A stretch of 47,277 bases of DNA, counting the filler, from Jimgerdemannia flammicorona (lineage: Eukaryota), in assembly GCA_003990765.1 (NCBI GenBank). It is 2 parts of 2 records of this genome, joined end to end, with 100 filler letters (N's around TTAATTAATTAA, not from the genome) between each part and the next. Parts side by side here need not be neighbours in the genome. Positions count along the whole stretch, not along the records: positions 23,693 to 47,277 come from RBNJ01001091.1; 1 more part is not named here. One strand, given 5' to 3'. Position 1 is the first letter of the stretch, and every line of letters starts with the position of its first letter. This document shows, piece after piece, positions 127 to 47,277 of the stretch. A model generated the notes under the pieces. That model had not been told where the DNA came from. It made no database searches and saw only the letters and a program-made list of their open reading frames with translations. Both the position numbers and the translations under genes were made by a program.

Positions 127-365
127 TGGTCAATGCGAATGAAAGCACCTACAGGGAATAAATAAAAGCACTGTCAACTTCTCAAATGATGACTCACTTT
201 CTCCGCAGCAGGAGGATCTTTGCGCTAAATGGCTGGTGTGACGTTCCGTATTCACGTGATTTAAAAGTCACAAAATCGAATATAGGCGACGTGTCTGTAT
301 AATTACTTCCATATACTTTCGCAAGACCAAGTAACGTTTTCCGTAAACCGTTGCTTTCACTTACA
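127..365. promoter_or_regulatory. Putative compact bidirectional promoter (left-edge gene / DNA-PKcs)
   Basis: Only ~240 bp separate the head-to-head ATGs (126 and 366). Contains the palindrome TCACGTGA (~252-259). Inferred from geometry only. Confidence 0.3.
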
Positions 366-5384: not shown

Positions 5385-5429
<45 letters not shown>

Positions 5430-8400: not shown

Positions 8401-8549
8401 CAAATACCTACGTTCTCGAGTTTTTCAAACGGCACATTGTCGAAGTCATGAACTTGTTGAAGCAACCGCCTTTACGACGCGGAACGGATGATGAGATTAA
8501 ACAAGATCTTATTGAACGAACCAGTTGCTTTAATTTAGTACAAATATCC

Positions 8550-8587
<38 letters not shown>

Positions 8588-10787: not shown

Positions 10788-10840
<53 letters not shown>

Positions 10841-23592: not shown

Positions 23593-23692
23593 NNNNNNNN
23601 NNNNNNNNNNNNNNNNNNNNNNNNNNNNNNNNNNNNTTAATTAATTAANNNNNNNNNNNNNNNNNNNNNNNNNNNNNNNNNNNNNNNNNNNN
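23593..23692. other. Artificial contig linker N44-TTAATTAATTAA-N44 (stops in all six frames)
   Basis: Symmetric 100-nt spacer. Base composition changes abruptly across it. Confidence 0.95.
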
Positions 23693-24676: not shown

Positions 24677-25325
24677 GCATAGGAGCACATAGCAAGCAGA
24701 AGGATACCACATATTTTTATCTGGAAACATATAATATGTACCGAACATTGCGAAAAAAGGGAACACTATGGATAACCAACAAGAAGATACCCGAGCAACA
24801 GAACAATCTAGTACAGTATAGCAAAACACATTTGAACAACCCTATTTCATGCCATCTGTGTCATCTCCGCTGGATGATGACGGACGCTTCATGTGAAACT
24901 TAGGAAAGCTGACAATGTCGAAACCAGTCTAAGTCCATCCACGTGACAGATATTGTTACTAAAGAATTGCCTCGGATTACAAGAAAGTCTATTTCCGAGA
25001 GGTTCGAACCCCCAGCCGCGACAATGGGAGCCCTCGCCTTAGACAAGGATGGCCAGTCCTCGCAAATGCACCAACCAGACAAAAAAAAAAGTGGACCAAG
25101 ACCTGTTAACCCCATGTAACCACAGACAGGTGACGAGATCTTTGAAATCAGAATTTCCTCATGTGACCAGCACATGCTTCGCTTATAGCACAGGTCATGC
25201 ATTTTGCCAGAAAGCGTGACCAAAGGAAGATCACATCAGACAGGTGAACAAGTATAAATACCCAAGACAAGAATACCCCGCAACTCTCATCCCCCTTTCC
25301 TCACAAAAGAAAAGACAAGACAAGA

Positions 25326-26132
25326 ATGCCTGCCACCCGCTGCCAAACTGCCTGCTGTAGCCGGCCCCTCCCAAGCCAGATTGACCGCCTCTTTGGACAC
25401 ATCCAAGTTGCTATCCAAGGAAGGAACTGCCGCTCAGAGGCCCTTGACCTCTCCCACCAGGACCTAGGACGATATGTCCTTGACCGCCGTGAACTCATTG
25501 AAAGGGCCTACCTTGCTACCAGCCACCTAGAAATCTGACATGAATATGAGATTGGCCACCAACTTCTCCAACGTGCAAAGGACCTGCCCATGGACCAAGT
25601 CTCCAACTGGACTCACTTAGACAGGCATGAGCAAAGACTTGCCAAGAAGGTCCATCAAATCATGTGCCATGCACCTTTTGCGATCCCCAACCTCAACTAC
25701 ATACAACTGAAGGACTTCCAGAACCTCTCTTTCCCTGAGGTCGACGAACTAGAGATCAAGGTAGCCCAAGAAGCCGACTCCTGGATCACCCCCAAGTCTA
25801 CTGACTGCGAACCCTACTGGAGCCCCCTCCTGAATGACAACCCTGACCAATGGCTCCAAGGCCTCTCTGACCTCTTTGAAGGACCACCCATCTGAATGGA
25901 TATTCCCAGGCATGAAGATCAAGAGCCCTACTTGGATGGCCCCAACCGCATCAGATGGAGAACCCCAACACCAGCACAAAACCCAGTACGAGAACCATTT
26001 GCAGACCTCATTGACTTCTCCATCCTGGACATCGAGCCATCAGTAACCACCCCCCCTGCCCCTGAGCAAGATTCCCCACCTTTCTCTCCCCTGGTTCTCA
26101 ATTTCTCAATCAACGAGAACATTGATTTCTAA
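25326..26132 (+). pseudogene. Accessory ORF of element A (~268 aa, two TGA stops probably from CGA)
   Basis: Track ORFs 25326-25538, 25590-25895 and 25896-26132 are one frame broken by two TGAs. TATAAATA lies at ~25253, and the stop abuts the PPT. Confidence 0.75.
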
Positions 26133-26143
26133 GGAGGGAAGGA

Positions 26144-26915
26144 TGTAATAGAATGATGAACGATGAGCGATCACGTGACCCGGCGAGCGATGACATCACC
26201 ATATGATTGAAGCGCGACATATGAATAGCGAGTACGAACGATGCGAAACGACGCGGAAAACGATATCCAGCTTACCCCCAACAATCGGCGCCGCAGTCAG
26301 CGCCGCAGCAACAGTTGCCACAGTTGCTGATCATTGCCTAGTAATTGAGGTCCTGATCACAAAATTGTTTTTGCCAAAAACCACCTGACAAAGGTCGCGA
26401 TCACAAACCTCATTATAGTTACCAAATTAGTCACTCATACTTAGTCAGAAATCGCAGACCAACTTGTATAAATACCCCCCAGTTTTCCATCCGAAATAAA
26501 CCAGTTTTAGTTCAGTCCTTGATACAAGAATCAAGTCCCCCCCACACACTCACATTCCCCTGAGTCTTAGTAATGACATCTAAGTGACTCTAGTGTTTCT
26601 GACTAAACTCCAGAAGCCTAGCTAACTTCTGCCAGAACTGAGACCAGTATATAAATCCCCAAAGACTTAAGTAAACCCATTGAACCTGAATTCCAAGGTG
26701 AATTCAGTCTGTGCACAGCAAAGAACAAGACCCTCAAAATAGGGCACAAGAGAAAGACCTTTGAAAGATAAGGCACTGCTGCTACAACTACTTTAAGCGA
26801 GCGCTTCCTCAACTGAAGGCTTCTTGGTACACATTGTGTACTAAGTCCCTAAGTAATAGTCCACTTCCCTAATTATCCTAAGGATAAGAGAGGGATAGAA
26901 GTGAGAGTTATTACA
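26144..26915 (+). repeat. 3' LTR of element A (772 bp)
   Basis: Starts right after the PPT. Perfect 7-bp terminal inverted repeat TGTAATA/TATTACA, TATAAATA at ~26467 and AATAAA at ~26495. Confidence 0.9.
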
Positions 26916-28168
26916 AAGGGTCTGTTTACCTGTACAAACTCTGTATACCATACAGACTCTGTACACTGTACAGGTCCTGTATACTATACAGACTCTGTAT
27001 ACCTACCATAAGTAGCAGATCTATAGTTAGCCACATAGTAACCAGATAGCAACCAACTTGTATAAATTACCCCAGAGACAAGAGTGAATAAACCTCAGTC
27101 TGAAATACAAATACCAAAAAAGCCTCTAAAGATTGAGCATTGGTCCCCTTTCCACTCCAGTCCACTTTCCAATACAAAGCTTGAAGATTTGCTGCCAAGT
27201 TCAAGAAAGAACTTCACTGCCTTTTGAAGAACCCGCTGCTTAAGGAATAAGTTATGCTATTGGTATGCTTGCCAGATAAGCCTGAAGAACCCCAGTTTCT
27301 GTATTCCCAGAGAGTCTTGCCACAAGCCAGTCCCTGATGCAACTTTGCAGTAGAGCCAGTCTATTGATGCAACTCCACGCAAATGAAGCCAGTCTCGACG
27401 TAACTTGCCAAGAACCCAAGTTATTATTCCCAGAAGAGCCTGATTTGAAAGAATCTGCACCATCCGAGTTAATTCTCAGTTAAGCCGCCATTATTAAGAA
27501 GTCTGTTGATTCAGGAAGAATCTGTATCATCTGCTGTTTCCAAGTTATCTGCTGTATTCTCAGTTGAAGCCAAAACCACAATATCCAAGTTATTTGCCAT
27601 TCCCAGTGAGCCTGAGAAGAATCTGCCACCAGTACTATTTCCAGTAATAAGAACCCATGCTGTACAATTCCCAGTGAGCCAAATCGAGTTGTCCACCAAA
27701 TCTGCATAAGGAATACTGCCAAGATCATCCTGCATAAGGAAACCGCCATGCTACATAGAGATCATCATGCTACACAGAGATCATCATGCAGAGATCACCA
27801 TCACTCAAGAAAGAGAACTGCTAAATTGCCAGACTATCATACAGAGATTATTGCACTATACAAGAGACCATCCCACCAGAATTCGCATACTTTTGGAGAT
27901 TGCCTCACTATACAAAATTGTGCCATTCCTAGTTGACCTAAGAAGGAAATCCATTCATATACACAAATCACCACTACACTCAAAGAACTGTCCCAAAAAG
28001 GAAACTACTCACACAGTATCCAGATCTTGACTATTATACCACTAAACACCAAGGACCTCAGGAATCTTAGAACATTTTATTGCTTTTTGACAAAGTAACT
28101 GGAGGCTCAAGCCAAACTACATCAACCCCCAACCTTGTAATTTGCCTCCATTGAGCTGGCATGTTACA
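26916..28168 (+). repeat. 5' LTR of element B (first ~139 bp displaced by element A; full LTR ~1.39 kb)
   Basis: Matches the 3' LTR from 35896. Ends ...TGTTACA, immediately before the PBS. Confidence 0.85.
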
Positions 28169-28249: not shown

Positions 28250-31200
28250 GATATAACACCAACCTCTGCCACTACAGGAGAATTAGTCATCACTAGCATT
28301 TAGACAGGAAGAGAAGTAATTACCTCAAGACTTGCCAACTACCCAGCATCAGAAGGATCCCAACCAGAAGCAAGAGGCAGTACAGCCCGAAATCCCCAAC
28401 CAGATCAACCAGATCAATCAGACAATACAGGCAGCCCTGCTAGAGATTTTGGAGAACTTGCACAAGAACTAGAAGACCTTATTACACAGACCCAATACTT
28501 TACAGCCAGACACCCTACATCAGTCCCACCAATCTCACCAATAGAACCCCTACCACAACCTCTTGCAGAATCAGAAGTAGCTCCTACAAGAATACCTAGG
28601 CCTATTCTACTCCACCCAAGGATCAGAACACCATCTTCAAGATATCCAAGCACTCTTGTCTCTAGTGACAGTTCAGAAAGTGAATCAGAATCAGAATTTG
28701 AACCTGAACCAGAATCAGAAGAAAGTAATAATGAAATGGCCACCTCATTGCCAACCTTTGCAGGATACCCAGAGGAAGACCCCAAAGAATTTCTTGATGG
28801 AATTGAAGGAATTGCAGCCTTGAGAAATCTCTCAGATGAAAGAAAAATCGCCATTTATAAAGCTCAGCTCAGATAACCAGCCAGAGGAATTTTCCATCAG
28901 ACAGCAAACAACCAAGATTCAGAACTAGTAAGACAGATACAAGCAGTAATATCTGATGAGCTGAAATATGAAGCCATGGTCCACTGGCTCATTGAAAAAT
29001 ATGCAGGAAATGAAACCCACCACAAGGCTCAGGAATCCATCATAGAAATGAAGATGAATCTTGGAGAATCACCCAGAGCCTTCTTTACCAGAATCCAGAA
29101 GAGAATGCATTCTGCCAGGTTCAATGCCACCAACCAAGACATTATAGGTCCAATGACCTTCATGAATGGAATTCCCCCGAATATTGCCCAGCATGTCTGT
29201 ACCCTAGGCATCAGAAGGTCTGAAGAGCAAGTAGATATAGCCCAAGGATTCTTTGATGTCAGGCAAGGAACTACCTAGAGTGATTATGATAAGAAGGAAG
29301 ATAAAGAAGATATCCTGGTCAAAGCCCTGCAAGGACTTCTTCAAGGACAAGAAAGATCTGAAGAAAGAAGGCCAGCTAAGGAAGGAAAGAAGGACAGAAG
29401 TGAAATTCAAGACCTTAGCTCCAAGTTAGACCAATTGGTTGGACAGATTGAAAAACTCACCACATGTGAAAATCAGGACTACCAAAACAACAGAGGGAAC
29501 CCACCACAGAGGAGCCAAGGTTATCCACCAAGAGATAATAGGAATTACTAGCAAGAAGAAAGAAGGTACCCTGTCTGAGACAGAGCCCAAGTCCAATGCT
29601 TCCACTGTGGACAATTTGGACACTATGCCACTGAATGTGACAATAAAAGAAGTGACCAAAGGGACTCAGAACCACCAAACTGAAGGAATGACACTCAGTA
29701 CAAGAAGACTGAAGCCCATCCTGTTGAAGATTTCGAAGAAGCAAGTAACAGTGAAGACTACAGTGACCTGGACTTGTACCCCACTAGGGTTACAACCTGG
29801 AAAACAGTCTATCCAGCAGAGAAAAGAAAGAGACCCATAGAAAGACCATCCAGGAACATCAGCAGAAGAATTATCCAAGAAGAGGATGAAGAATATGAGG
29901 AGGAACAAGTAGAAACACCTCCCCAAACCCCCTCACCTTTTGTCTCCGAGACAAATGAGTTGCTACCAGAAGATGAAGAAATGGAACAAGAGGAACAGGA
30001 ATCTGCTGCTCCAAAGCCTAAGAAGAAGTACACTCCAAAGACCATGCCTAGAGATATTTACAATGAAGCCTGGCAGAAGATTCAAGAAGCCAAGATGGAA
30101 GTCCCTCTTCTACAGTTCTTGCAACTGACACCAGCTGGAGTCCAAAACAAATTGCTGAGAACCACTAGGTCTAGCACTGGCTGAGTTCCAATCCCACAGC
30201 AAGAATGAGCTCCTATCCTTGTTCAAGCAGCTGAAAGACATGTCAGCACCTACCTATATGAAGATATTGGAGGACAAAAAGCGAAAATCCTCATAGACAC
30301 AGGAGCAGCTGTCTGTGTTATTGCCAAACGATTCTTGGACACCCTCCAATGGCCCATTGATGGACCATTGAACCTCAGCATCATAGTAGCAGATGGAGCC
30401 CAAACTCAACCCCTTGGAGAAGTATGAAATATCACCATCTCTCTTGGACACATTTAGTTCTCCATCTCCAAAGCTGTTGTCACCAAAGCTGTTACCTATG
30501 ACATGATTCTTGGCACCAACTGGATGAAGGAAATGAATGCAGTTGTTGACATTGGCCAACAAGTACTCAAGTTTGACTACTAAGGTAAGAAGTACAGAGT
30601 TAAGGTAACTAGTTATGAGCAATCAAAGAAGAAGAAAAAGGTCACTATTCAGGAAAAATATGCCAGCAGCAAAGAGTCTACTACAGAAGAAGAAGAATCT
30701 GAAGATGGAAATGATCCCAGACTTAATCCCCAAATCAATCTGGTGGATAACAGACCAGAAGATAATGTGTGGGTCAAGAACACCATCCCTATCACTATTG
30801 GAGCTATTGCGGAAGAAGCCAAAGGATGCTCTACCTGCCTCAAGAGACACAAATGTCCTGAGCACTCCTCCAAGATCATGGAAACAAGGAAATCACCTGG
30901 CACAGTCTGCCCAGAATGCAGAAGGAAGAAGAAGAAATATAGACATGTTCCAGAAATACCTGCAATCAAAGCTGCAGAAGTATAAGCAATTTGGGGTCAA
31001 GAATCATCCAAGGAAGAAGAAACTTCTGACCAAGAAGTTCCTGAACAAGAAGCATCTGATGAAGAAGAGGTCCCCGAACTCATTCCCTAGGATGACCCTT
31101 GCTGGACACTACCTGAAGACAATGACCCATGGAATACAGAAGAAGGACCCAGTATAATCACCATTATCACCAAGAAAGAAACCCACCAAGAGAAAGCTTT

Positions 31201-34144
31201 TCAGCTAGGAAGATGTTCATACCAAATGGTCTTCCATTCCCCCTGAGACTACTGCTATCAGTGTCATCTGTTGGACCAATAAGAAAGACAGAGACCCCAG
31301 AGACCAGAATTCCCAACTACTCTTGTACAGTCTACCACCTTTCAAGAAGTCACCACAAGGTTACAAAGTCGATTTAGGGGACAAGGCTTCTTCACCTGAA
31401 CAGAAATATACCCCTTGTCTACTCTTCCCCCAACCTATGATCAAGATGGGTACCAATTCCCAAGGCAATAAGAGATAAATAGCCGGGAACATCATTTCTG
31501 AACAATGAGATATTGCAACCATGGGAGACACCCTGATTGCTGAGACTGTAGATATCAGAAGATTCACCTCAGTCATGATATTGCAGTGCACACCTTGAAG
31601 AAAGGAGATAACCAAAGCCAGATTCAAAAAAGTCAGATTCGAAAAAGCCAGACCAAGAAGCCCAGAAAAAGAATTCTCAAGATCTATAATTTGGGAGAAG
31701 ACATCCTAGCTCTCATCAGACATGCAACTCGCCAAGGATGGGCAGAAGATACTACCAACTTCATGGAAGCCCTCGACCCCACAGAAAGGAGGGAATCAAT
31801 TACCTCCAAGACCCCTCTACTGGAGCCAGATGGCCACACCTCAACCTTAGAGCTTGGAGGCTTTCCGCTAGTGGAGCTTCAGCCTTAGGAAAGCCTGAAC
31901 TCAGCAAGGACATTGCCCAGTATGCCCTGCTGCACCCCAAGGCCAAACCCCTGACCAAAGCCCACTCAGAGGATGTAGGATATGACCTTCACAATCTGAA
32001 GGATAATCTATCAAGCCTGGAAAAACCTTTATGGTCAGAACTGGATTAGCCATGCAGCCACCCCAAGGAGCTTATATTCAACTGATCTCAAGGTCCAGAC
32101 TTGCCAGACAAGGGATAACTATAGAAGGAGGAACCATTGACCCTGGATATACAGGCGAAATCAAGGTTATCCTACACAACTGCAGTGCAGAATAGCACCG
32201 AATCATTAGAGGACAGAAGATTGCCCAAGCAGTCTTCATGAAGGTCAAGACCCCACAGTTACAGGAAGTCTCTGAACTAACTGAAGGAACAAGACAAGCC
32301 AAGGGATTTGGAAGTTCAGACAGGAAGGAGGTATATCTCCTTCAAGTTAACCACCTTAAGAAGAATGTTCCCCAGCAAGTATACCTGCAACCAGTCAGAC
32401 TGCACAAGAATCTCATTCTGGAATCTGGAGAACAAACTACCTTCAAAATCTTTGCACCACCCAACCCCAGAAACCTTTTCTTTGAACCTAAAGAAGATAT
32501 CCCACACCTGGACATAGAGGGATACACATTCTCTGATAAGATGAATCCAGTACACTCCTAAGCAACCAACCAAAGTTAGGAGACCATCATCTTGCCAAAA
32601 GGAACCATTATAGGATATCTGGTGCCTTTTCTCAACCAAACTCATAGGGAAGTTTATGAACTAAACCTATCAGGAAATGGCAAAAGGTCCCAGAAGAAAG
32701 GAAAGGCCTCTCTGCGACCCAGGAGACAGTGAAGCCTTCCACTAACATTGGAGAAGAATTGACACCTCAACAACAATAACAACTAGTAGAACTTCTCAAC
32801 AAATATCAAGATATCTTCATCACTGATTATGGCAACCTGCCATACAATCCATCATATCACTATAGCATAAATACAGGAAATGCAACACTCATCTGGCAGA
32901 AACCCTATAGAATACCCCATCACTTGAAAACATTCGAAAAAGAGCACATCTAAGAACTCTTAGACAATGGAGTTATCTGACCCTCTACTACCCCCTGGGC
33001 CAGCCCTATACTTATTGTACCAAAGAAAGGAGGATGAAGACTCTGCATGGATTACAGGAAACTCAATTCAGTCACCAAAAAGGATGCCTATCCTCTGCCC
33101 AGGATCGATGACCTTTTGGATTAGCTATAAGATACCAGATACTTCAGCAGTATGGACCTCTCCACAGGATTTCATGAGATCTCCATGGACCCCAAAGACA
33201 TTCAAAAGACAGCCTTCCTTGCTCTAGGAAAACTGTTTGAATATCTCTAAATGCCCTTTGGACTTTGCAATGCACCCCCCACTTTTCAGAGAATGATGAA
33301 TTTGGTCTATGCCCCCCTGATTCACCACTGCCTGATTATATACATGGATGATTCCAACATCTATTCAGCAAATTTCGAAGAATACCTGCACCATATAGAG
33401 GAATTCTTCAAGCTCACTTGCAAAAACCACTTGAGACTGAATGCAAAGAAATGCTACTTTGGGAAACAGAAACTTGAATTCCTCGGATTCATGGTTTCAA
33501 AAGAAGGAACTCATGCAGACCCAAAGAAAATCAAGAAGATCAACAATTGGCCAGTACCCAAGACTCCAAAAGAAACACTATCATTTCTGATACTAGTATC
33601 CTACTACAGAAGATTCATCAAAGATTTTGCCCAAATCGCTGCCCCAATCCGAATCCTTCTCAAGAAAGGAGTGCCATTCAAATAGACAGAATCACAGGAA
33701 AAAGCCTTCAGAGAACTCAAGAACCACATAACTACAGCACCAATCCTTGTGTGCCCCAATCTACAGAAGCCATTCATCTTATATACAGATGCTTCTAAAG
33801 ATGGCCTCAGGGCAGTACTGTCCCAAGAAGGACCTGATCAACAGCACCATATGATAGCCTATGTAAGCAGGGCTACCAACCAGCAGCAGATGAACTATGG
33901 TAGCACCAAACTGGAATGCCTTGCAGTCATATGAGCAGTTACCCTGTTCAAGCATTACCTTATCAGAAAAAGGTTCACCCTGATCACAGACTATGTAGCC
34001 CTCAAATGGCTATTCAACTGCAAGGAACCTGCTGGAATCCTAGCCTGCTGGATCCTTATCCTTCAGGATTACAAAATCACTATTATTCACAAAGCAGAGA
34101 AAGCCTACAACAATGTTGATATACTTTTCCGCCAGCCCCAATGA
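28250..34144 (+). pseudogene. Decayed gag-pol of element B (Gag, CCHC knuckle, protease, dUTPase, RT, RNase H); start approximate
   Basis: LPTFAGYPEEDPKEFL (Gag); CFHCGQFGHYATEC (~29597); ILIDTGAA (~30290); DAYPLPRIDD, MPFGLCNAPPTFQ and YMDD (RT); LYTDAS (RNase H). Many stops and some frameshifts. Confidence 0.9.
31921..32321 (+). pseudogene. dUTPase domain in element B (between protease and RT)
   Basis: All five trimeric dUTPase motifs are recognisable: VGYDL, SRSRLA, GTIDPGYTGEI, KIAQ, RQAKGFGSS. Confidence 0.9.
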
Positions 34145-35205
34145 ACCAGAAGAAGGGTGTCCCAAGGAACCACACCCTAAAAAAAGCTCCTAAGACCATC
34201 AAGAAACAAGAAAATCTCATCTGACAAGAACATCAGAAAGCCCACCAAGGACAGACATACATAGAAGACAAGATTTGAAAACAATATCAACATTGGCCCC
34301 ACCTCAGAACCCAAGTCCAAGACATTATTCAGAAATGTGACATCTGCCAGAAGTATCAAGGAAAGAAGAACTATCAAGCCCCTCTGCAACCAATTCCTCC
34401 ACCCACTCACATCTTTCAAAGATGGAGAGCAGATGTAATTGGACCTCTACCAGTTATACCAAGAAGAAACAAATATATTCTTGTATTTGTGAAACATCTG
34501 ACCAAGTGGCCTGAGGCTTTTCCAATGGAAATCACAGATGCCTTAACCATTGTAGGCCTCCTCCATAGACTCACACTCAGATATGGACCCCCAGAAGAAC
34601 TCATCTCTGACCAAGGCACAGAATTCATCAACAATATAATCACAAGTTATGCTTGAATTCACAAGATCCACCTCAAAAGGACCACATCATACCACCCTCA
34701 GACCAATGGCATGATAGAGAGAATGAACCAGACCATCAAGAAAGGACATGCCCAAGTCAATCCTACTAATTGGGACCTCTGCTTACCTGAGATCTTATGG
34801 AAAATTCAGAACACCCCTGCCATATCCACCAAACAAAAGCCATTCAAAATGATGTTTGCCAAGAGAACCAGAACTGACCATAAGAATCTCAGAGACCTCC
34901 TCAAGAAGGCAGAACAGTTATGTAATCAAGCCCAAGGACAGATTATCAAAGCCCAGGAAAGACAAAAGAAGTACTATAACCAAAAACAGAAGGATCAGAA
35001 GATCAAGATTGGAGATCAAGTCCTAGTTTGGAGAAGTATGATTGAGACAAACTTTGCCACTAAACTAGAACCGAAATGGGAAGGACCTTATCTTGTATAC
35101 AATATCAGAGGAACCAGTATCTATTTAAGAAGCATGGATAGACAAACCCTGAGAACACCAGTACATATCAATCACCTCAAACTATATTTCCCCTCTACAC
35201 CATGA
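34141..35205 (+). pseudogene. Integrase of element B as a separate ORF
   Basis: From ATG 34141 in one frame: H-x3-H...CDIC zinc finger, WRADVIGPLP, LISDQGTEF, YHPQTNGMIER and KWEGPY. Two internal TGAs near the N-terminus. Confidence 0.88.
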
Positions 35206-35717
35206 GCCAAAGGATTGATCAGCACCTCCAGACATTGGTCCTCAGCTCCTTCCAAGCCCTACCAGTCCCTCTACCCCAATTCGGCCAAGCCAATGGAAGC
35301 CCCCTTCAAAGGATCCAAGTTCACCAGGAAAATCTTACCTTGGCCAGATGCCTACTACAAGTCCACCAACTGCAGGCCTATTATGCAATTGGTGAACAAT
35401 TGCAGAACCTCCCAGCCCCAGAACAGACCTATATCAGGAATACCATAGGTCTGACCAGAAGAGACACTACTGCTACAGACAGACTATACACTATTTATAA
35501 ATGAAATGTCACAGCCCTGATACAAGCACAATTCTCCCTGAATGATATTCAAGGAATGAACCCTGTTACCTATTTGAGCATCATCAACTCTGTCGAAATT
35601 CTATTCCCCAAAGAAGAAGAAGAGCCCATAGAATGGAGTGACCCCAGTATAGACAATGAAGATGATGGAACAGGTATAGATACAGAAGTAGCCTATGCTT
35701 ACTGGGATAATGACTGA
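35202..35717 (+). pseudogene. Accessory ORF of element B (~171 aa; may extend to TGA at 35754-35756)
   Basis: ATG overlaps the integrase stop (ATGA). One internal TGA at 35502-35504, then an acidic tail EEEEPIEWSDPSIDNEDD. Confidence 0.75.
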
Positions 35718-35756: not shown

Positions 35757-36696
35757 TGTGACAAACCAAAACATACCACCCAAATTATATCTTAACCAGA
35801 TGATGTGAACAATTAGGCAAGATGATGTGAACACACAGTATAGTAACCAGCAACCATTGCTGCGGAAAACTGTATAAATAGCCAGACATACTAGAAAGGG
35901 TCTGTTTACCTGTACAGACTCTGTACACCATACAGACTCTGTACACTGTATAGGTTCTGTACACCATACAGACTCTGTATACCTACCATAAGTAGCAGAT
36001 CTATAGTTAGCCACATAGTAACCAGATAGTAACCAACTTGTATAAATTACCCTAGAGACAAGAGTGAATAAACCTCGGTCTGAAATACAAACACCAAAGA
36101 AGCCTCTAAAGATTGAGCATTAGTCCCCTTTCCACTCCAGTCTACTTTCTGATACAAAGCTTGAAGATTTGTCACCAAGTTCAAGGAAGAACTTCACCAC
36201 CTTTTGAAGAATCTGCTGCTTAAGGAATAAGCTGCACTATTGGTATGCTTGCCAGATAAGCCTGAAGAACCCCAGTTTCTGCATTCCCAGAGAGCCTTGC
36301 CACAAGCCAGTCCCTGATGCAACTTTGCAGTAGAGCCAGTCTATTGATGCAACTCCATACAAATGAAGCCAATCTCAATGTAACTTGCCAAGAACCTGAG
36401 TTATTATTCCCAGAAGAGCCCAATTTGAAAGAATCTGCACCATCTGAGTTAATTCTCAGTTAAGCCACTGTTATTAAGAAGTTCACCGATTCAGGAAGAA
36501 TCTATATCATCTACCATTTCCAAGTTATCCACTGTATTCCCAGTTGAAGCTGAAACTGTGACATCCAAGTTATTCACCATTCCCAGTAAGCCCAAGAAGA
36601 ATCTGCTGTCAGTACTATTTCCAGTAATAAGAACCCATGCTGTACAATTCTCAGTGAGCCAAATTGAGTTGTCTGCCAAATCTGCATAGGGAATAC
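35757..36696 (+). repeat. 3' LTR of element B (interrupted by element C at 36696/36697)
   Basis: Begins TGTGACA after a short purine-rich tract. Co-linear with the 5' LTR up to ...GGAATAC. Confidence 0.88.
35913..35984 (+). repeat. 4 x 18-bp tandem repeat (TACAGACTCTGTACACCA) in LTR B U3; second copy at 26933-27004
   Basis: Units start at 35913, 35931, 35949 and 35967. Confidence 0.85.
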
Positions 36697-38761
36697 TGTA
36701 AGCACACAACCTTCAAGCCACCAAAATCACACATCACCCTCTGAACAAGCCACTGAAATCACATGCGACCTCTGAACAAATCTGGAAATTACCTGCTTGA
36801 TCACGAAGCTGAGTCAAACCAAAGTCACAGTGTACAAAGCTGAGTCAATACAAAGTCACAGAATACAAGATTCATATAAACAGAATCTTACCAATCAGGA
36901 CCAAATGCATATATACCAAGCACCGAGATGTATCGAAACAGAGAACCAAAACAAACAACAACCACAACTCTTAACATACAAACATGACTACTGAGATCTA
37001 CAACTGTATCTGCATTGACATTTGGAATGTTATTATCAACTGAGCCACACCCCCTTTGCCCCTTATAAATATCCATAGCCTAGCACCCCTCTACTTCATG
37101 GAAGCCCGATGGAATGCCCTGAACATGCTTAATGAGGCCCACCAAATCAGACAAATCTCAAGCTACTATCAGATCAGCCGCCTCCTGAAAGATATGGTTA
37201 AACACCACTATGATACAGACATTACCCAGATATCTCAACACCAAAAGCTCATCACTCACAAATACAGAGAACTCTTCTACGAGTACAGCACCTTTATTCT
37301 CCACCTCTGAGTTACTACCAGTGAAATGGTTGCTACTCTGTCCTATGGCCAAATCGATGACATGATACAAGAACTCAACCACAAGTATCTCGAGTACATC
37401 CAGACCACAGACAGAACCTTTCCGCACCCCAATAACCACATCCTGCAAATGCCCCAAGTTGGATACATTATGAAGGACATCTACAATATAATCCGGTTCA
37501 ATGATGATGAAGCAGAAGACAATGATCTCTCTGACACTGACATGACCCCAAGCCAAGGATCCCTGCCAATACTAATTACACCACCAACCTTGCCAATGAA
37601 CTTACAATAGTTCATAACCACATATGAGACTTATTGGGACAATGATCACTAGTATGAATACTGACCTGCATTCACCCCCGATTACTTCAACTATAATGAA
37701 GAGACTGGAGAACACAACCTATACCTTCAGACAACCCTTGAGATTGAACCAACCACTCCACTATCCGAGTATGAGCAACATGAACCACAGCTACCAGCAT
37801 ACTATAACCCTACAACTTATAGTGCTGTAACCTACAGAAGGTACACAGACAGTGAATCTGATGAAAGTGAAGACAATGCACCACTCCTTCACCCCCCAAC
37901 ACCTTACCCAGTATATGAGACTGACGACACCATCTTATGGGATGGAGATAAAGTTCCAATGTATTATTACCTCAGCAAACAAGGAGAAGTAATCTGCAAA
38001 CCACTCTTCCTAGATGACTACTTCATTAGAGATGATGCAATTGATAGTGATGTCATCAAAGACTACCCAGACAGCATCTAAACCTAGAAATAGGTTAGCA
38101 GTCATAGTATAGTTAGATTAGCCTTGTATAATGTAACTGTGAACTAACTCAGCAGTCAGATGATCTCTTGATATGTCAGATCACTCTTATACTATATGAC
38201 TGCATTCCGACTCAGCAAGGCACTTAGTGCTACATCTATATTTAGTATAGTCCAGATAGCCCCTCACTAGTATAAATACTCCCTCCCCTAGACCTCAGAA
38301 TCTCAGACCTAAACAATCTGAACACAACTCCTGAGCACTTCCCCACAATATCCCTTCACACAACTACTCCTAGTATAGTAATATTATGAATAGCGAATAA
38401 ATCTATTTAATAACCCACAACCCACTCTTAAGTAAATCTGCTCCCCATTAGGTCCCACTTCTAACCCCATCATAAAAATTCCTAATTGGGTATTGTCTGT
38501 AGTGATATGCCAATTCAACTAAGCTGGTCTTAGTTTCTTGAACTTCCTGAAATATGGAAAATCCTGAACATCCAGAACTAGTCCAAAAAAAGGACTCTGA
38601 TTGAAACATCAACCCAAACTTGAAATCAATAAGTATAGAGGATGTACTCTATATGAAATTGATCTTGACCATAAGAAAACAGTCTCCCAGAACATCCAGA
38701 ACTTCTAGAAAAACCCCTCCAGAACTACATAATGGTTACTCTAAAAAGCAACCCTCTTACA
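36697..38761 (+). repeat. 5' LTR of element C (right end inferred)
   Basis: TGTAAG...CTTACA inverted termini, followed by TGGTAGTAGTG (38765; resembles a decayed tRNA-iMet PBS). TATAAATA at ~38271. The end cannot be confirmed because the 3' LTR is truncated. Confidence 0.7.
37065..38081 (+). pseudogene. Accessory ORF inside the LTR of element C (~338 aa); partial second copy 45647-46098
   Basis: A single frame with scattered stops. The two LTR copies complement each other: ATA 37065 vs ATG 45647, and TGA 37308 vs CGA in the 3' copy. Confidence 0.8.
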
Positions 38762-38899
38762 ACTTGGTAGTAGTGATTTACAATCCAATTCTGTTTCAAG
38801 ATACTTCTTCACTCAGCTATAAAACCCCTCTGTGAATTCCTACAAGTTAGTATCAAGCCCAACCTCTGAACTAGAATTTATTCTGAACCATCTGACAAT

Positions 38900-41800
38900 C
38901 TGAAGAGAATTGAACCTGACGTACAAGGACAATTTGACCTCTACACCTGCAATAAGTGGGACAAACTTCATTTAAAGAAAGAAGTACTCCAGTTAAACCA
39001 GCAAATAGGTGAAACCCTATTCACCGAACTCCTTGCACTACACCCAGCAAGTCAATATGAAGAAGGTCTTATAGAAGTCTTCTTTACTCTTCTCAACAAG
39101 AGTTTTGTTAGCTCCACAAATTTGAGTAATCTAGGATAACCAGCAGCAGTCTTTCTAGCCTTAGTCCCTCATGAAGCCCAAACCTCTGTAGCCAAGTGGC
39201 TCAACTCTACCAACTTTCACCATACCAGGACCAAGACTGCACTATACTACCAATTCCAGAACAGCAAGACCCACCATATCCTTAAAGAAGAAGCAAGAGA
39301 AACTCTTCATCAACTACCTGACCCTGAACCTGAAGTAGGCTCTGCTATAGCTCTACCTAAATCTGAAACCAATACCAAACCTGAACTTGACTTTGAATTA
39401 AGTCCATCTGAAATCAGATATATAACTGATTCTGTCTACTTTGATGCTGAGCAAACTCAATTACATGGAGATCAAACTGAAGAGGAGGAGGAGTATCTCA
39501 GTGAATTCGATCTCAGATATATCAGCAAAGGAGAAGCACCTCCATCAGGACAGAATATACCTACACAGTAACAAATAGCTATCTATCAAGCTCTTACTCC
39601 AGACCCACAACTACTACTCCAACAACTTACATAGACCTAAAGAACACTCTCACACTCTGCACCAGTACCTCAAGTAGTACTAGTAACACCACTACCAGTA
39701 GTCCAACTGCCTTCAGTAAACAACATGGTGAACCAACAGATTCTAGACCTCATAGCCCAAGTAGCAATAATGGCAGCAACCATTACTGCCCTAGCCGAAC
39801 AGACCTGACCTACCAAAAATCTGAGCCTACCTACCTTCAATGGTACTGCATAAGAAGTTCAAAGCTTCATTAGTATAGTAGATACCAACTTCGAAGCCAA
39901 TCAATGGACCAATGAGCAAGTTACTGACTGCATTCTGACAAACAATCAAGACCACACCCTGGAACAACTCTTTGCTACCACTACAGCCTATGTCTGCCAA
40001 GTTGTTACATTCTTCTGAGGATCTGCTGAAGAATGGTAGTGAACTCTTCCTGAAAAACCTCTCACATAGGACACCTGACCTGCAGTAGTTGTGCAGAATG
40101 CAGCAAATAACGCCCCAGGATATGGAGCCCATCCTGCAGCCCCTGGTCAAACAACTCATGATTGCTCAATACCACAGTGAAACTATGATTGCTGAATCCT
40201 GAGTAAAACTCTGCAACCTCAAATTCGATGTATATGGCAAAGAAGAATTCAAAACCTTCTGTACAAAACTCAAGTCACTCCTGAACACTGTTGACCTAGG
40301 ATATATCGCCAATGATGAAGCATGAAATGGTACAAGAGCAGACCATTTATTCGATGCCCTGCCTGAATGGCTTACTAGAAAAATCCAAGAACAAGGCCAC
40401 CCAGTTGGTTGTGATCACCAACAATGATGTCTGGCAAGAATCAAGACTATGGTCAAGCAAATCCTAACAGCTGGACCAATTCAGCTCTGAAGACAATTTA
40501 ACAATAAGGAAAAGACTTGGACCAAGAAAGAAGAACCCAAGCATGAAGTATCCCAAGCTCCCTCCACATCCACCTCTTGGACACCTAGAAATCATGAACC
40601 TGCCCAGCTGAGTATCTTCAAGAAACTCACCAAAGGAGAAAGAAATGAACTTCAAAGAAGTGGAGCATGCTTCTATTGCTGAAAGATAGGACACATGGCC
40701 AGTGTCTACCCTAACCAAAAACTCTGAACAGCAACATGAGCAACTGTTACCACTCTGCACCACCTCAACAACCTGATCACCAGAATACTAGACTTTGTCA
40801 AGTTAAGGCAAACTGCCAAGGCTCCAACCAAAGGAAGTCAAAAAGCAGCCAGATATGATCTATATGCAGCTGAAGAAGCTACAGTTTCCAACTGAGAAGT
40901 CAAGCAAGTCTATACAGGAATTAGTATCCAAATTCCTGAGGGATATGTTGGAAGAATATGCTGTTACAGTAGCCTAGCATTGAAGGGACTCTTAGTAGAA
41001 GGAGGAGTCATTGATAAGGATTATACAGGTGAAATTATTGTCCTCATCTGAAACCATAGTTGGATATCCTTCAAGATCCCTATAGGTTTCTGCATCACTC
41101 AGATCTTATTTAAAAAAATTGAGTCAACCCTGATAGTCAAGGAAGTCCCTGAACTACTATCTACCATCTGAGGATCCAAAGTATTTGGCTCATCAAACAA
41201 GGCCCAGCCCAACCTACTATGAGCAAAGAAGAACAATTCTACAAGAAGATCAAAGACAGATATGTACCAAGTGGCTGATGCCCTCATGGTATTGGAATGT
41301 ACTCTTCCCGAATGATTGATGATTGCTTCTCTTGTATCAATGAACTGGCACAAAGAAGAATCAACAGAAGGAAAGCTCCTACAACTGATATCACCACCAT
41401 TGGATCAGACAAACTACTTACACTTAAAGCTTTTGTCAACTGAGCACCTGTCAAGATTATGATAGACAGTAGTGCCTCAGACAACTTCATTAATAAAGAA
41501 ACAGCCAATAGACTCAAGGTCTTCACCTCTCCAGTACAACAAACTCAAGCAGTAGCCACAGCTGATGGAACCTCATATGTTATTAGCAAGGAAGTCCACA
41601 ACCTACCCTTCCGAATTGGTGACTATTGAGTACATATTACCTTCCAAATTGTACCACTTTCTGACAATGAGATCATCCTTAGAACCCTATGGTTGAAACA
41701 AGAGAACCCTATGATTGATTGGGTAAACTATTCTCTGACCATCAAGAAAGGATGCCATAACTTCAAACTACAAGGCAAAAAGGATACACTCAATTCTAGT

Positions 41801-44800
41801 GACCTTGGACCAAAGATCACCTACATCAACAAGCTACAACTCAAGAAATTGGCCAAGAAATGCCCTCTTTTTGCCATCTCCATCCGCCCATCCAAAGGAG
41901 AACTCAAAAACTCTGGAGAAGACTTTTCCAAAGTTGACAGCTATATCAGACCACTACTCCAGAAATTCCAAGACATATTCCCAAAGAAGCTCCCAAAGGG
42001 CCTACCTCCTAAACAAGCAGTAGACCATGCAATCAAGACTATTCCAGATGCCAAGCCAGCCTTCAAGTCAATCTACCACATGTCTCCAAGAGAAATCAAT
42101 TTACTCAAGATAGATATCAATGAACTTCTAGAACAAGGATTCATCAGGCCCAGTGTATCACCCTACAGTGCACCAGTCCTCTTTGTTGTAAAGAAAGAAG
42201 AAGACCTGAGAATGTGTATTGATTACTGTGACCTCAATGAACAGACCATCAAGAACTGTTGCCCACTACCGAGGATTGATGAAATATTTGATAGACTCAC
42301 CAACCTGCAATTTATGAGCTCTTTTGATCTGTGAAATGGTTATTGACAAATTGCTATGAAAGAAAAAGACATCTACAAGACAGCTTTCTGAACTCACTAT
42401 GGATACTTTGAGTTCCTGGTTATGCCCTTTGGCTTAACTAATGCTCCAGTAACCTTCCAGATACTGATGAATACCATTCTGCATCCATACCTAGACAAAT
42501 TTGTTGTTGTCTACATTGATGACATCCTAGTCTTCAGCAAAACCCTGGAGGAACATCTCGAACACCTTGAACTAGTACTACTGAAACTCTGAGAAAACCA
42601 ACTCTTTGCAAAACTCAGCAAGTGTGAATTCCTCCTGAAAGAAATCCAATTTCTTGGATACATTGTCATACCAAATGGAATTAAAGTAAACCCCAGCAAA
42701 ATCTCTGCAATCAAAGATTAGTCTGGACCCAAGAAGCTGAAAGACCTCCAGTCATTTCTGAGATTAGTAAACTATTATAGCAATTTGTTGCCAACTTTGC
42801 TAAAATCGCTACCGCCCTCACCCAAATGACTAAGCATAACAAGAAACAAGAACAACCCTGGACCATGAAACAAGAGAAAGACTTCAACAATCTTGTAAAT
42901 TGGGGACCCAAGCAAGATACTGCCTTTCAAGCACTAAAAGATGCCCTGATAACCACTCTAGTACTTCAAGCGGCAAATCCTGCCCTACCATATGAAGTTA
43001 CTACTGATACCTCTGACCTAGCTCTTGGAGCAGTGCTCATACAAGAAGGACACCTTGTGGCCTATCACTCCCGCAAGTTCAATGATGCTGAAATTAACTA
43101 TATAACTCATGAGAAGGAAATGCTAGCCATCATAGACACTCTGATCAAATGGTGACCATACCTAGAAGGAGCACACTTCACTGTATTGACTGATCACAAG
43201 TTACTAGTCAACATCAAGATACAGGCTACCCTCTCTTGAAAGCAAGCCAGATGGATGAAAGTCCTCACTAACTTTGACTATGAAATCCAGTACTGCCCTG
43301 GCAAGGAAAACATTATCACCAATGCAATCTCCAGGTCACCAATCGAAGAAGTTATCCAAACCCTCACCTTGGTTATAAACTCCATCATGGAACAAATTAT
43401 TGTAGCATGTACTGATGATAAGGAAGCTCAAGTACTCTGAGAAATCTTGGACAGTGATGATGCCAATAAGCATATACAGTATCATCAATACCAACTGAAG
43501 GACAATGCTATCTACTATAAGGACAGACTGTATGTCTCAAACAACTGAGACCTCTGAAGGACTATCCTATTCAAATGTCATGATGCCCCTACAGCTGGAC
43601 ATTTAGGATTTGATAAATGTTATGAAGTTATCTCCTGAAACTTCTATTGGCCCCACATGGCAGACCAGCTCAAGATCTATATCACTTCCTGTGATGCCTG
43701 CCAATGGAATAAGTCCTCAACACTAGCAAAATCTAGCCTACTCCACTCTATTCCAGTACCATCTGCTAATTGAGAACAAATATCTATAGACTTCATTGTA
43801 CAACTACCCCAAACCAAGAATGGAAAAGATGCAATTGTTGTCTTTGTAGACTATCTCAGCAAACAAGCTCACTTTGTACTAACTACCACTACTGCAACAG
43901 CACCAGATATAACTACACTCTTGTTTGACAACATTTTCTGCTATGTATCATGGTCTCCCTAAGATCATTGTTAGTGACCAAGACCCAAAATTCACCAGCC
44001 ATTTTTGGAAAGCCCTCCATACATACCTTAGAATGAAACTTGCATTATCTACAGCTTTTTACCCTGAAACTGATGGCCAAACCAAAAGAATGAACCAAAC
44101 TCTGGAATAAATGCTAAGGAACTATGTTTCCTACAGACAAGATGATTGGCATGAACACCTCACCACAGTTGAGTTTGCCTATAATAACAGCAAGCAAGCC
44201 TCCCTTAGAATGACTCCATTCTTCGCCAACACTGGACAAAACCCAAACACCTCTTTGATACTCATCTGAACTACTGAAGAACCCTCTACAGTCAAAGCTG
44301 TTGAAGAATTCCTGCTCAGAATGTGTAATCTAAGCCAGATCGCAATTGAGAATTTATCATGAGCTTAAGAACAACAGTCACAGTATGTTAACCAATACTG
44401 TCGAGAAGAAACCTTTGATATTGGAGAAAAAGTTCTACTAGACATCCAAGAATACCGAGTAGACAACCTCAAGCACAGACTATCTACAAAGCTGAACAGC
44501 AAGTTCATTGGACCATTTGAAGTTATTGTACAAGTCTCTTCAACCTCCTACAAATTGGTGTTGCTAGATACCATTAAGATTCACCCAGTCTTTAATGTCC
44601 AACATCTCAAGCAATACAATGACAATGATGATGAACTATTCTCAAACCAAACCATGGAACCACCTGCATCTGTCATTATTAATGACCAGGAAGAATACAA
44701 AGATTGAACAGATTCTCAACAAACATGGCCACAAGAACCACCCAGAATACCTTGTTAAATAGAAAGGTTACTTGATCCATAATGCAACCTGGGAACCCAA

Positions 44801-44858
44801 GACCAATCTCCAGAATGCTACTGACTTGGTTCAGGAATATGATTCCTTGAACAACTGA
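38900..44858 (+). pseudogene. Decayed gag-pol of element C (Gag, CCHC, dUTPase, protease, RT, RNase H, integrase, chromodomain); ends approximate
   Basis: LPTFNGTA (Gag); CFYC*KIGHM; IMIDSSAS (protease); [16 protein letters not shown] and YIDD (RT); HDAPTAGH...CDAC (IN); YLVK*KGYLIHNATWEP (chromodomain). Confidence 0.9.
40788..41195 (+). pseudogene. dUTPase domain in element C (between Gag knuckle and protease)
   Basis: AARYDL, YSSLA, GGVIDKDYTGEI, ITQ and *GSKVFGSS: decayed versions of the five dUTPase motifs. Confidence 0.88.
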
Positions 44859-45278
44859 AATCTGAATACTCCCATACTATTAGTACATACTATATATTAC
44901 CCTCCTGAACATTATAATTATCATGAACAAAACCAAGAATGCAGCAAGCCAAGAATACTGACCCTCTAGAAAAATAGCAAAACTGAAAGCCAGCCTATTC
45001 TCTCCATACCACTGGTGGGAAACGAGGTGTAGACATTTAAGAAGATTCCTTAGAGGAAATTCTTCAGCAGTAAATGATGTCAGAATTACTTTCAGTGCAT
45101 AGTATTGAATACAGGACCCTTTAATGTATGAATCTAATGCATTAGGCAACTGTACTATGAGCATGCCACTTTCTGAAAAAAATAGACTTTACTGGACTTT
45201 TGACCTCCCAAATGGTGTAACAACACTAGAACAAAATTAGAAGGCCCCAATGAGAACATCGAAAGCTAAGGGGAGAGT

Positions 45279-46098
45279 TGTAAGTGCACAACCTTCAAGC
45301 CACCAAAATCACACATCACCCTCTGAACAAGTCACTGATATCACATGTGACCTCTGAACAAATCTGGAAATCACCTGCTCAATCACAAAGCTGAGTCAAA
45401 CTGAAGTCACAGTGCACAAAGCTGAGTCAATACAAAGTCACAGAACACAAGATTCACATAAACAGAATCTTACCAATCAGGACCAAATGCATATATACTG
45501 AGCACTGAGACATGTCAAAACAGAGAACCAAAACAAACAATAACTATAACTCTTAATACACAAACATGACCACTGAGATCTACAACTGTATCTGCACTGA
45601 CATTTGGAATACCATTGTCAACTAAGTCACACCCCCTTTGTCCCTCATGAATATCCATAGCCTAGCACCCCTCTACTTCGTGGAAGCCTGATGGAATGTC
45701 CTGAACATGCTTAATGAGGCCCACCAGATTGGACAAATCTCAAGCTACTACCAGATCAGCTGCCTCCTGGAAGATATGGTCAAACACCACCATGATACAG
45801 ATATTACCCAGATGTCTCAACACTAAAAGCTCATCACTCGCAAACACAGAGAACTCTTCTATGAGTACAGCACCTTTATTCCCCACCTCCGAGTTACTAC
45901 CAGTGAAATGGTTGCTATCCTGTCCTATGATCAAATTGACAACATGATACAAGAACTCAACCACAAGTACCTCGAGTACATCCAGACTACAGACAGAACC
46001 TTCCTACACCCCGATGACCACATCCTGCAAATGCCCCAAGTTGGATATGCTATAAAGGACATCTATGATATAATCCAGTTTGATGATGATAAAGCAGA
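45279..46098 (+). repeat. 3' LTR of element C, truncated or interrupted at 46098
   Basis: Starts TGTAAG after the PPT. Homology to the 5' LTR stops abruptly after AAGCAGA. Confidence 0.9.
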
Positions 46099-47277
46099 CA
46101 GCTCCTTTCTCCGCTACCCTACCAGTTACAAGATTTGGTAGGCGACCTTCTGAGTCCCCTTTCCCCCAATATTACCCCCTCTACCTTGGGTTGGTTTGCT
46201 GTGCCTGCAGGGGCATGGTGGGAGGAGGGCGATGGTGATGAGTTGCCCCTTTATCAGTGTCGGATCGGTACTTCCTCCACTTTTTTGCAGATTCTGGTGC
46301 CTTCAGCTGCATCTGGGGTATACCCATTTTGGTATGGCACCTTCTTTCTTTTGCCGTCGCCAATAAGGAGTTGTCTCAGTATGTCTTGGGCTATGTAGGG
46401 AGTCGGCTGACCTTGGGCATCAAGTGCTCAGTGTAGGTTACCTGCAGGTCTTTGGTGTCTGTGGTAGGGCCCTCTGGCTTTGGCGAGCTTCCCAGTGAGC
46501 ATGGTTCTGGCATAGGTGACTGCTTTTCAGGTGTTGTCGGGATGGGAGGAGAGATGGCCATCACAGATAGGTAGAAGGGCGATTACGGTGAACCAGTTGG
46601 GTACCAGGCTGGGGGCGGTCATCGGGGCTGGGGCAGGTGCTGCTTTGGTGGGGCCTTTTGATTGGTGCGACGTGGTTAGGTGGTAGGTGTCACTATCGGC
46701 TTCTTTTGGCGGTCAGTGGGGTTGGGCCCCAGTTGTCAGGGGGGGTCAGGAGGCCTGAGACTATCCATTTCAGGTGTCTTGGCTGCACTCAATTGGAACT
46801 GGGAGCTGATATGGCAACGTGATCGAGGCCCACAGGCTTGAGTAGTGGGGTATTGGGGGTTTCCTCCCACCTCACGTATAAGTTCTTTACTCACCTCAAC
46901 TGAGAGAACCAGGCCCTACCCACCATGTTGTGCTTTGATGAGGGTTTTTTATTTGCCTGTCATTCTCTTTGGGGTAGCAGGGGCTATTCTATTCAGCTCA
47001 GGCATGGCCTTGTACATATGTTGGGTTCTCAGGCATGCGCTTTCAGTCATTGGCATATGGTTGGGTTTCCCCTGGTGGTAGGGAGAGCATGGTGCACAGA
47101 ATGAGGTATGGGCTTATTAGCCCTGCTGTGCCTGGCATGGTCGAGCTACTGGACAATAGCTAGCCTAGGTTAATGGGGGGGCAGTGCTTGGTAGGTGGTG
47201 GGGGAGGGTTTTGGCCTATATAGTCTAGGTTTCCTTCCAATAAAAATCTGTGGGACATGAGTCTATTAAACAAAAAA
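46099..47277 (+). mobile_element. Probable 5'-truncated non-LTR (L1/Tx1-like) retrotransposon remnant
   Basis: Abrupt switch to a G/T-rich strand. Decayed PSC...PETIHF..C and ALYICWVLRH resemble the ORF2 C-terminal zinc finger and WxxRN region. AATAAA at ~47239 is followed by an A-run at the window end. Confidence 0.4.

Follow-up and report, generated by a model that had tools for sequence, protein, structure and literature searches.

A dead chromovirus of Jimgerdemannia flammicorona with a probable accessory gene inside its long terminal repeats

Genes lying wholly inside a long terminal repeat (LTR) are rarities. The textbook case is sag, the superantigen gene in the unique 3' region (U3) of the LTR of mouse mammary tumour virus (MMTV), whose product is presumably a type II membrane protein. 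Nef of human and simian immunodeficiency viruses (HIV/SIV) and bet of foamy viruses are 3' accessory genes sharing sequence with U3, and foamy viruses use an internal promoter. The additional open reading frames (ORFs; aORFs) described in Ty3/gypsy elements are, as far as is known, located internally, between the LTRs. Element C, which starts at 36697 and extends to 46098 or beyond (+ strand), was identified in a 47,277-nucleotide stretch of Jimgerdemannia flammicorona DNA (the window); it is an aged Ty3/gypsy chromovirus, disrupted by frameshifts, that carries a dUTPase. Its 2.07-kb LTRs probably hold a complete sense-strand accessory gene in U3. A chromovirus LTR with a family-conserved gene is a genuine anomaly of structure, and we interpret it as a variant of the sag type.

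The frame in element C resembles sag in its length of some hundreds of codons, in its sense orientation, and in its position wholly between the polypurine tract (PPT) and the LTR promoter, by which it is doubled in both LTRs. It differs from sag in host and element class, element C being an env-less Ty3/gypsy chromovirus of what is probably a soil eukaryote with compact genes, in a product without a membrane segment or sequence similarity, and in the presence of a candidate promoter of its own. Pfam, PDB and hydropathy analyses do not place the product in the MMTV Sag family. Unlike nef and bet, whose reading frames begin ahead of the PPT and reach only in part into U3, the gene of element C lies wholly inside the LTR.

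Among 30 of 49 papers that contain phrases such as 'LTR ORF', the term mostly denotes MMTV sag, as in the accessible portion of PMC2118998. Extra ORFs beside gag-pol, downstream of pol, are reported for Ty3/gypsy elements as the aORFs of plant Ogre/Retand/Tat and the 'add. ORF' of fungal chromoviruses (accessible portions of PMC7264820 and PMC2864245). Element C, also of the Ty3/gypsy type, shares with these, as described there, an extra ORF beside gag-pol and 3' of pol, but carries it past the PPT and within the LTR; in a neighbouring element, A, the ORF occupies the usual internal place. Chromoviruses with a dUTPase are documented in fungi (Postia placenta PosPlaTy3, Phanerochaete, Tuber Tmt1), with a dUTPase place that varies and includes the Pol N-terminus (PMC2864245, accessible portion). 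Likened by domain layout, element C shares with them gag, an N-terminal Pol dUTPase, the protease-reverse transcriptase-RNase H-integrase (PR-RT-RH-IN) order and a chromodomain; it differs in its LTR-borne gene, which the accessible portion of PMC2864245 does not describe. A search of full-text literature, with most subscription journals outside its coverage, found no account of an env-less LTR retrotransposon whose LTR encloses a protein-coding gene. The phrases 'in the LTR' and 'within the LTR' are absent from PMC7264820 and PMC6431247, as is 'inside the LTR' from PMC7264820, and the accessible portion of PMC10787394 does not describe an LTR-internal protein gene.

The LTR of element C is delimited on its left by a direct repeat, detected by self-comparison, in which 36697-37516 matches 45279-46098 over 820 bp with 90.2% identity and 0 gaps. 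The 5' LTR (36697..38761, +), a 2065-bp TGTAAG...CTTACA sequence bounded by the repeat start, a terminal inverted repeat and contig depth, begins with TG at 36697, at the junction with the LTR of another neighbouring element, B. The 3' LTR (45279..46098, +) retains its first 820 bp, containing ORF codons 1-177, and its TG at 45279 is separated by 1 base from the PPT AAAGCTAAGGGGAGAG (45262..45277, +). Element B has a repeat pair of its own (26909-27718 and 35889-36698, 810 bp, 90.6%, self-comparison). Its 5' LTR carries GGAATACTGCC uninterrupted at 27712-27722, while its 3' copy is broken there and adjoins the first base of element C; element C therefore inserted into the LTR of element B. The presumed target site AATAC occupies 36692..36696 (+) in the element B 3' LTR, with a second copy expected beyond the window.

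Public sequencing data reveal the same left terminus in other copies. Thirteen runs from 8 studies, 11 labelled soil metagenome and 2 organism A, hold small shares of 0.05-0.19 throughout, with no RNA run among them, and contigs of four (X1, X2, X3 and X5) were placed on 36400-45278. Contig depth is near zero in the flank bin left of 36696 and rises at the 36695/36696 bin border from 9.3 to 863 in X1, an upward step common to all four runs. The LTR terminus of other copies appears in X2 as a joint of 41596 to 36697, and in X5 as a joint of 37327 to 36705 with 8 letters between. PPT-to-LTR junctions of other copies are represented by an X5 joint of 45270 to 36746 and an X1 loose end at 45270 (8 reads). 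The preliminary description of this locus had the repeat start at TG directly after the PPT and at the exact insertion junction, and both placements hold, with a terminus that recurs in other copies. A metagenome scan with the 17-nt PPT/LTR junction returned 61 loci, 0/61 of which are similar to window positions 20000-47277 (blastn, 1e-5); all were rejected as chance matches.

Because the 3' LTR is interrupted at 46098, we infer the 3' end of the LTR from three features of the 5' copy. CTTACA, ending at 38761, forms an exact 6-bp inverted repeat of the starting TGTAAG; a TGG-type, primer-binding-site-like (PBS-like) sequence, TGGTAGTAGTG (38765..38782, +), lies 3 nt beyond the LTR's CA; and contig depth falls from 1996 to 465 across the 38767/38768 bin border, a decrease shared by all four runs. 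The window contains 0 tRNA genes against which this PBS-like site (TGGTAG...) could be matched. Sensitive alignment reveals that the two LTR copies share nothing past 37516/46098, since unrelated DNA from 46099 replaces the rest of the 3' LTR. The ~2-kb LTR proposed earlier is thus confirmed at its start and seen twice over 820 bp, but the rest of the 2065 bp is seen once and its end would be that indicated by the features above.

The 2-kb length would be an artefact if the true LTR covered only ~38130-38761, with 36697-38130 derived from a nested insertion or from the 3' terminus of a tandem copy lying upstream. We regard this as highly improbable. It would fit the LTR of element A, which measures only 770 bp with the ORF outside, and a TGTAAC at 38132, but the left edge of the repeat matches to the base both the PPT of the 3' copy and the break in element B's LTR, and recurs in other copies. 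A purine tract is missing ahead of 38132, and one could not have been erased by transitions, the class to which 79 of the 80 differences between the element C LTRs belong. Depth in the four ORF bins, divided by the mean of 22 internal bins, is 1.85 (X1), 2.10 (X2), 2.09 (X3) and 3.00 (X5); summed contig depth is not copy number, and the roughly doubled depth in all four runs would be expected of an element with two LTRs.

The LTR-borne ORF (36984..38081, +), composed of 365 codons and a stop codon at 38079-81, contains no frameshift. It starts 287 nt past the LTR start, and its codons 1-177 follow the PPT in the 3' copy, restricting comparison between the two LTRs to 177 of the 365 codons. An ORF at 37065-38081 had been described previously; its single frame stands, with 4 internal stops compared with 9 to 38 in the other five frames, and the best frame of 5000 shuffles averages 13.8 stops, with 0/5000 having four or fewer. 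The real frame is longer than that description, however, being open to the ATG at 36984. In-frame stops occupy codons 20, 109, 209, 223 and 227 of the 5' copy (n=5) and codons 20, 42 and 87 of the 3' copy. Inactivating mutations are accordingly complementary, as first suggested, at codon 109 (5') versus codons 42 and 87 (3'), but not at codon 20, which is a stop in both. Because of this common stop, the start at 36984 may not hold in this subfamily, whose true start may lie further downstream.

Two database proteins match the product. A word-indexed search of 5.8 billion proteins yielded 1 match among 281 candidates and a 'shorter' protein search 1 match among 20 candidates; HMMER, run in full against 1.84 billion representatives, gave 3 matches, one of them (P0004) an artefact. 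P0002, a 247-residue protein on a 998-bp contig, corresponds to ORF codons 115-365, with 163/251 positions identical (65%) and 207/251 similar; its 4 gap positions are in frame, it contains no stop, and its C-terminal residues are the same as those of the ORF. P0003, a 128-residue protein on an 1180-bp contig, corresponds to codons 1-128, is open from the first Met, and is identical at 104/128 positions to the 5' copy and 106/128 to the 3' copy (81-83%). P0004, a repeat protein (E 6.7e-7), was rejected, as its scores for 24 unrelated Pfam families are sums in which no individual stretch passes. A metagenome scan with protein alignment produced 220 pattern matches, of which 0 were confirmed.

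Together, P0002 and P0003 cover nearly all of the ORF and bridge the break at 46098 (equivalent to 37516). Since P0002 is uninterrupted across the break point, the 5' LTR represents the native order and the 3' LTR the damaged one. With codons 1-177 present in both LTRs as well, the earlier proposal of a true LTR with a gene inside is supported. Two open fragments, nearly full coverage and a bridged break make the frame look like a family gene rather than a chance frame, and the frame is conserved among element copies, in two relatives only.

An alternative is that the frame is a non-working relic, either a captured fragment or a former internal ORF, carried in a long U3, with the open fragments derived from young copies. 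The lack of a recognisable domain or fold, the derivation of both database relatives from ORF callers, and the death of the window copies are in its favour. P0002, however, differs at 35% of residues without any interruption of its 247 codons, has only in-frame gaps and stops in the same place, which at the sequence level argues for selection on the frame. The window copy, by contrast, acquired 5 stops in 365 codons at a far lower divergence (~10% between LTRs). Element A, moreover, retains an ORF of similar size, charge and position. We consider a relic unlikely and a family gene the preferred reading.

The segment upstream of the ORF contains a 31-bp tandem repeat in 2 copies (36806..36868, +), a candidate upstream activating element in which each copy carries TGAGTCA (36810-16 and 36841-47), which we take to be an AP-1/Gcn4-type site. 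A TATA-like box, GCATATATAC (36907..36916, +), positioned ~70 nt before the ATG at 36984 and kept in the 3' copy, is the candidate promoter of the LTR gene. Another sequence, TATAAATA, located just before 37065 in the 5' copy, was not counted as a promoter; it is coding in the 3' copy and in P0003. Downstream of the ORF, GTATAAATAC (38270..38279, +) is the presumed main LTR promoter box, with the border between U3 and the repeat region (R) shortly after, in agreement with the TATA reported near 38271 in the preliminary description. GTATAAATAC has 3 matches in the window versus 0.04 expected, the other two being in element A (ORF promoter and LTR), and its places in elements A and C are equivalent. 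AATAAA (38396..38401, +) is the presumed polyadenylation signal and would mark the end of R. Spacings are 190 nt from the ORF stop (38081) to GTATAAATAC and ~360 nt from AATAAA to CTTACA.

Because the ORF is upstream of the LTR's GTATAAATAC and AATAAA, it probably belongs to U3, an assignment drawn from the positions of these two motifs (38270 and 38396) only. From LTR start to PBS, the order would then be TG, the 31-bp pair, the TATA-like box, the ORF, GTATAAATAC, AATAAA, the unique 5' region (U5), CA and the PBS. The TATA-like box and the pair of TGAGTCA repeats upstream of the ORF would also suit a gene in R (or R-U5), with genomic RNA starting from the TATA-like box near 36910, the ORF serving as a 5' leader gene at both RNA ends, and GTATAAATAC at 38270 acting as a secondary or internal promoter. 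This arrangement, which we judge distinctly unlikely, would require an R of ~1.5 kb and a gag placed behind a 365-codon ORF plus ~800 nt. It would also pass over GTATAAATAC followed by AATAAA as the LTR core, which is common to neighbours A and B and sits close before the poly(A) signal.

Several points weigh against a complete accessory gene in U3. Only 820 of the 2065 bp are present in both LTRs, and the longest contig piece listed is 469 nt, so none spans the PPT, the ORF and the LTR end. The gene may belong to R instead of U3. Both window copies are dead, with the codon 20 stop common to both. The product has no Pfam, PDB or Atlas match, and its fold model is useless. Only two homologues were recovered among 1.84 billion representatives, and P0002 and P0003 are fragments from gene callers that list open frames only, introducing ascertainment bias.

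If the gene lies in U3, as we favour, its location would follow from the polypurine tract located between pol and the gene: plus-strand priming from this tract would put the gene inside U3, and reverse transcription would copy it to both ends of each new insertion. The gene mRNA would most likely be short, running from the TATA-like box in U3 to the LTR poly(A) signal and 3'-coterminal with the genomic RNA, which would make each LTR a self-contained transcription unit. The product would be a putative trans-acting accessory factor in the element's own life cycle.

A bolder possibility, which we hold to be rather unlikely, is that the LTR, equipped with an activating repeat, a TATA-like box, the 365-codon ORF and a poly(A) signal, would be a mobile gene in its own right, every LTR, including solo LTRs produced by recombination, being expressible and hundreds of lineage-specific acidic-protein copies acting in trans for the elements. 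Such a protein might act, for example, against the host methylation-linked silencing that would lie behind the elements' C-to-T changes. Transitions comprise 75 of the 76 differences between the element B LTRs, comparable to element C, and many LTR-pair differences are TG/CA pairs at former CpG. The CpG observed/expected ratio is 0.12 in element C and 0.09 in element B, compared with 1.05 in the DNA-PKcs gene of the window. This excess of transitions points to strong methylation-linked CpG deamination confined to the elements. For annotation, long 'non-coding' LTRs may conceal genes, and solo LTRs may retain activity.

Element A provides the counterpart arrangement. Its pol stop (24674-76) is followed by a cassette (25252-26132) composed of GTATAAATAC (25252, +), the presumed ORF promoter, and an ORF of 268 codons (25326-26132, +; ATG at 25326) that contains 2 stops and encodes an acidic, Pro-rich product without a Pfam match. 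The ORF stop overlaps the element A PPT, AAGGAGGGAAGGA (26133-26145, +), beyond which lies an ordinary 770-bp LTR, TGTAATAG...TTATTACA (26146-26915, +), with GTATAAATAC at 26466 and AATAAA at 26497. The GTATAAATAC-to-ATG spacing of ~70 nt in element A equals that between the TATA-like box and the ATG in element C. In element A the cassette thus stands before the PPT, whereas in element C the PPT stands before the cassette, and the element C LTR is longer by about the length of the cassette.

This matching cassette order makes a PPT shift a plausible origin of the LTR gene. The preliminary description had proposed exactly such a capture; the order agrees, but protein homology between the A and C ORFs is weak, a relic purine tract behind the element C ORF was not found, and the comparison does not tell the direction of the shift. 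The Smith-Waterman score of the element A ORF is 56 against P0003, compared with 29.2 +/- 4.4 for shuffles (0/300 reach it), and shows no excess against P0009 (105/300 shuffles) or P0002 (125/300). A profile comparison of the A and C ORFs (hhalign) gives a weak E of 0.21. If the family consensus is as we read it, the window shows both states, cassette before the PPT (A) and behind it (C), and would offer a natural example of a moved priming site altering LTR content and doubling gene dose.

Element B contains a frame after the integrase (35142-35717, +) with one internal stop, ending in ...YWDND, five residues also found in the LTR ORF of element C. This post-pol tail compares weakly with the element C family (hhalign E 0.095), and its Smith-Waterman scores exceed those of shuffles only against P0003 (1/300) and P0009 (10/300). 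Given this weak similarity, it was left as a hint and not counted as a homologue of the element C ORF.

The predicted product of the LTR ORF is acidic (pI 4.05-4.36) and hydrophilic, with 9% Tyr and 7.5-10% Pro. No membrane segment is present, the maximum 19-residue hydropathy being 1.24. In searches with the product, GrpE (E 0.14) was the sole Pfam hit within an E limit of 10, the best E in a PDB profile search was 0.3, and an Atlas search yielded nothing usable. The AlphaFold model, generated from a 327-residue query starting at the ATG at 37098, is unusable, with a mean confidence (pLDDT) of 30.2. Prediction suggests helices in the first ~100 residues and a mostly disordered remainder.

The internal region of element C (38762..45261, +) has its domains distributed over three frames, resolved by a Pfam scan of three frames of 38762-45278 with stops read as X. 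A decayed CCHC motif near 40683 (+) marks gag and is followed by the dUTPase (40815-41195, +), aspartic protease (RVP_2; 41405-41749, +), reverse transcriptase (RVT_1; 42191-42667, +) and RNase H (RT_RNaseH; 42901-43275, +). The integrase zinc finger (Integrase_H2C2; 43546-43716, +), SH3_Tf2-1 (44423-44617, +) and a chromodomain at the integrase C-terminus (PF00385, E 4.5e-9; 44700-44843, +) complete the series. The protease-RT-RNase H-integrase order, the chromodomain and the TG...CA long direct repeats are those of a Ty3/gypsy chromovirus, and element C represents a dead chromovirus with a dUTPase at the Pol N-terminus. The place of the dUTPase in Pol differs between elements: in B (32196-32558) it lies well after gag and before RT, and in C it immediately follows gag and precedes the protease.

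Three LTR retrotransposons (A, B and C), all sense-oriented, are nested downstream of the DNA-PKcs gene in the window. The left edge of the element B repeat (26909/35889) has no purine tract before its 3' copy, and the left edge of the 5' copy abuts the end of element A's LTR (TTATTACA at 26915). The true LTR of element B probably starts further upstream, with element A sitting inside B's 5' LTR. Extension of the element B LTR to the TTACAACCTGGAA site at 29790 was rejected, as 28304-29700 is B's gag, recognised by its LPTF...CCHC pattern. Element A lacks its own 5' half, and two 44-N runs (23593-23636 and 23649-23692) fall within the stretch read as this element.

The DNA interrupting the element C 3' LTR (46099..47277, no strand assigned) is G/T-rich, unrelated to C and has a GC content of 0.53. 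Pfam gives 0 matches in its six frames, and Rfam 0 matches in 20000-47277. It finishes with AATAAA and an A-run where the window closes, and may represent a retrocopy or a poly(A) retroelement truncated at its 5' end. At the opposite side of the window, the DNA-PKcs gene (~300-19577, +) is recognised by the Pfam domains DNA-PKcs_N, CC1-2, CC3, CC5 and FATC. The best relatives recovered for it show no more than 46% and 34% identity, and the gene is composed of long exons separated by short introns.

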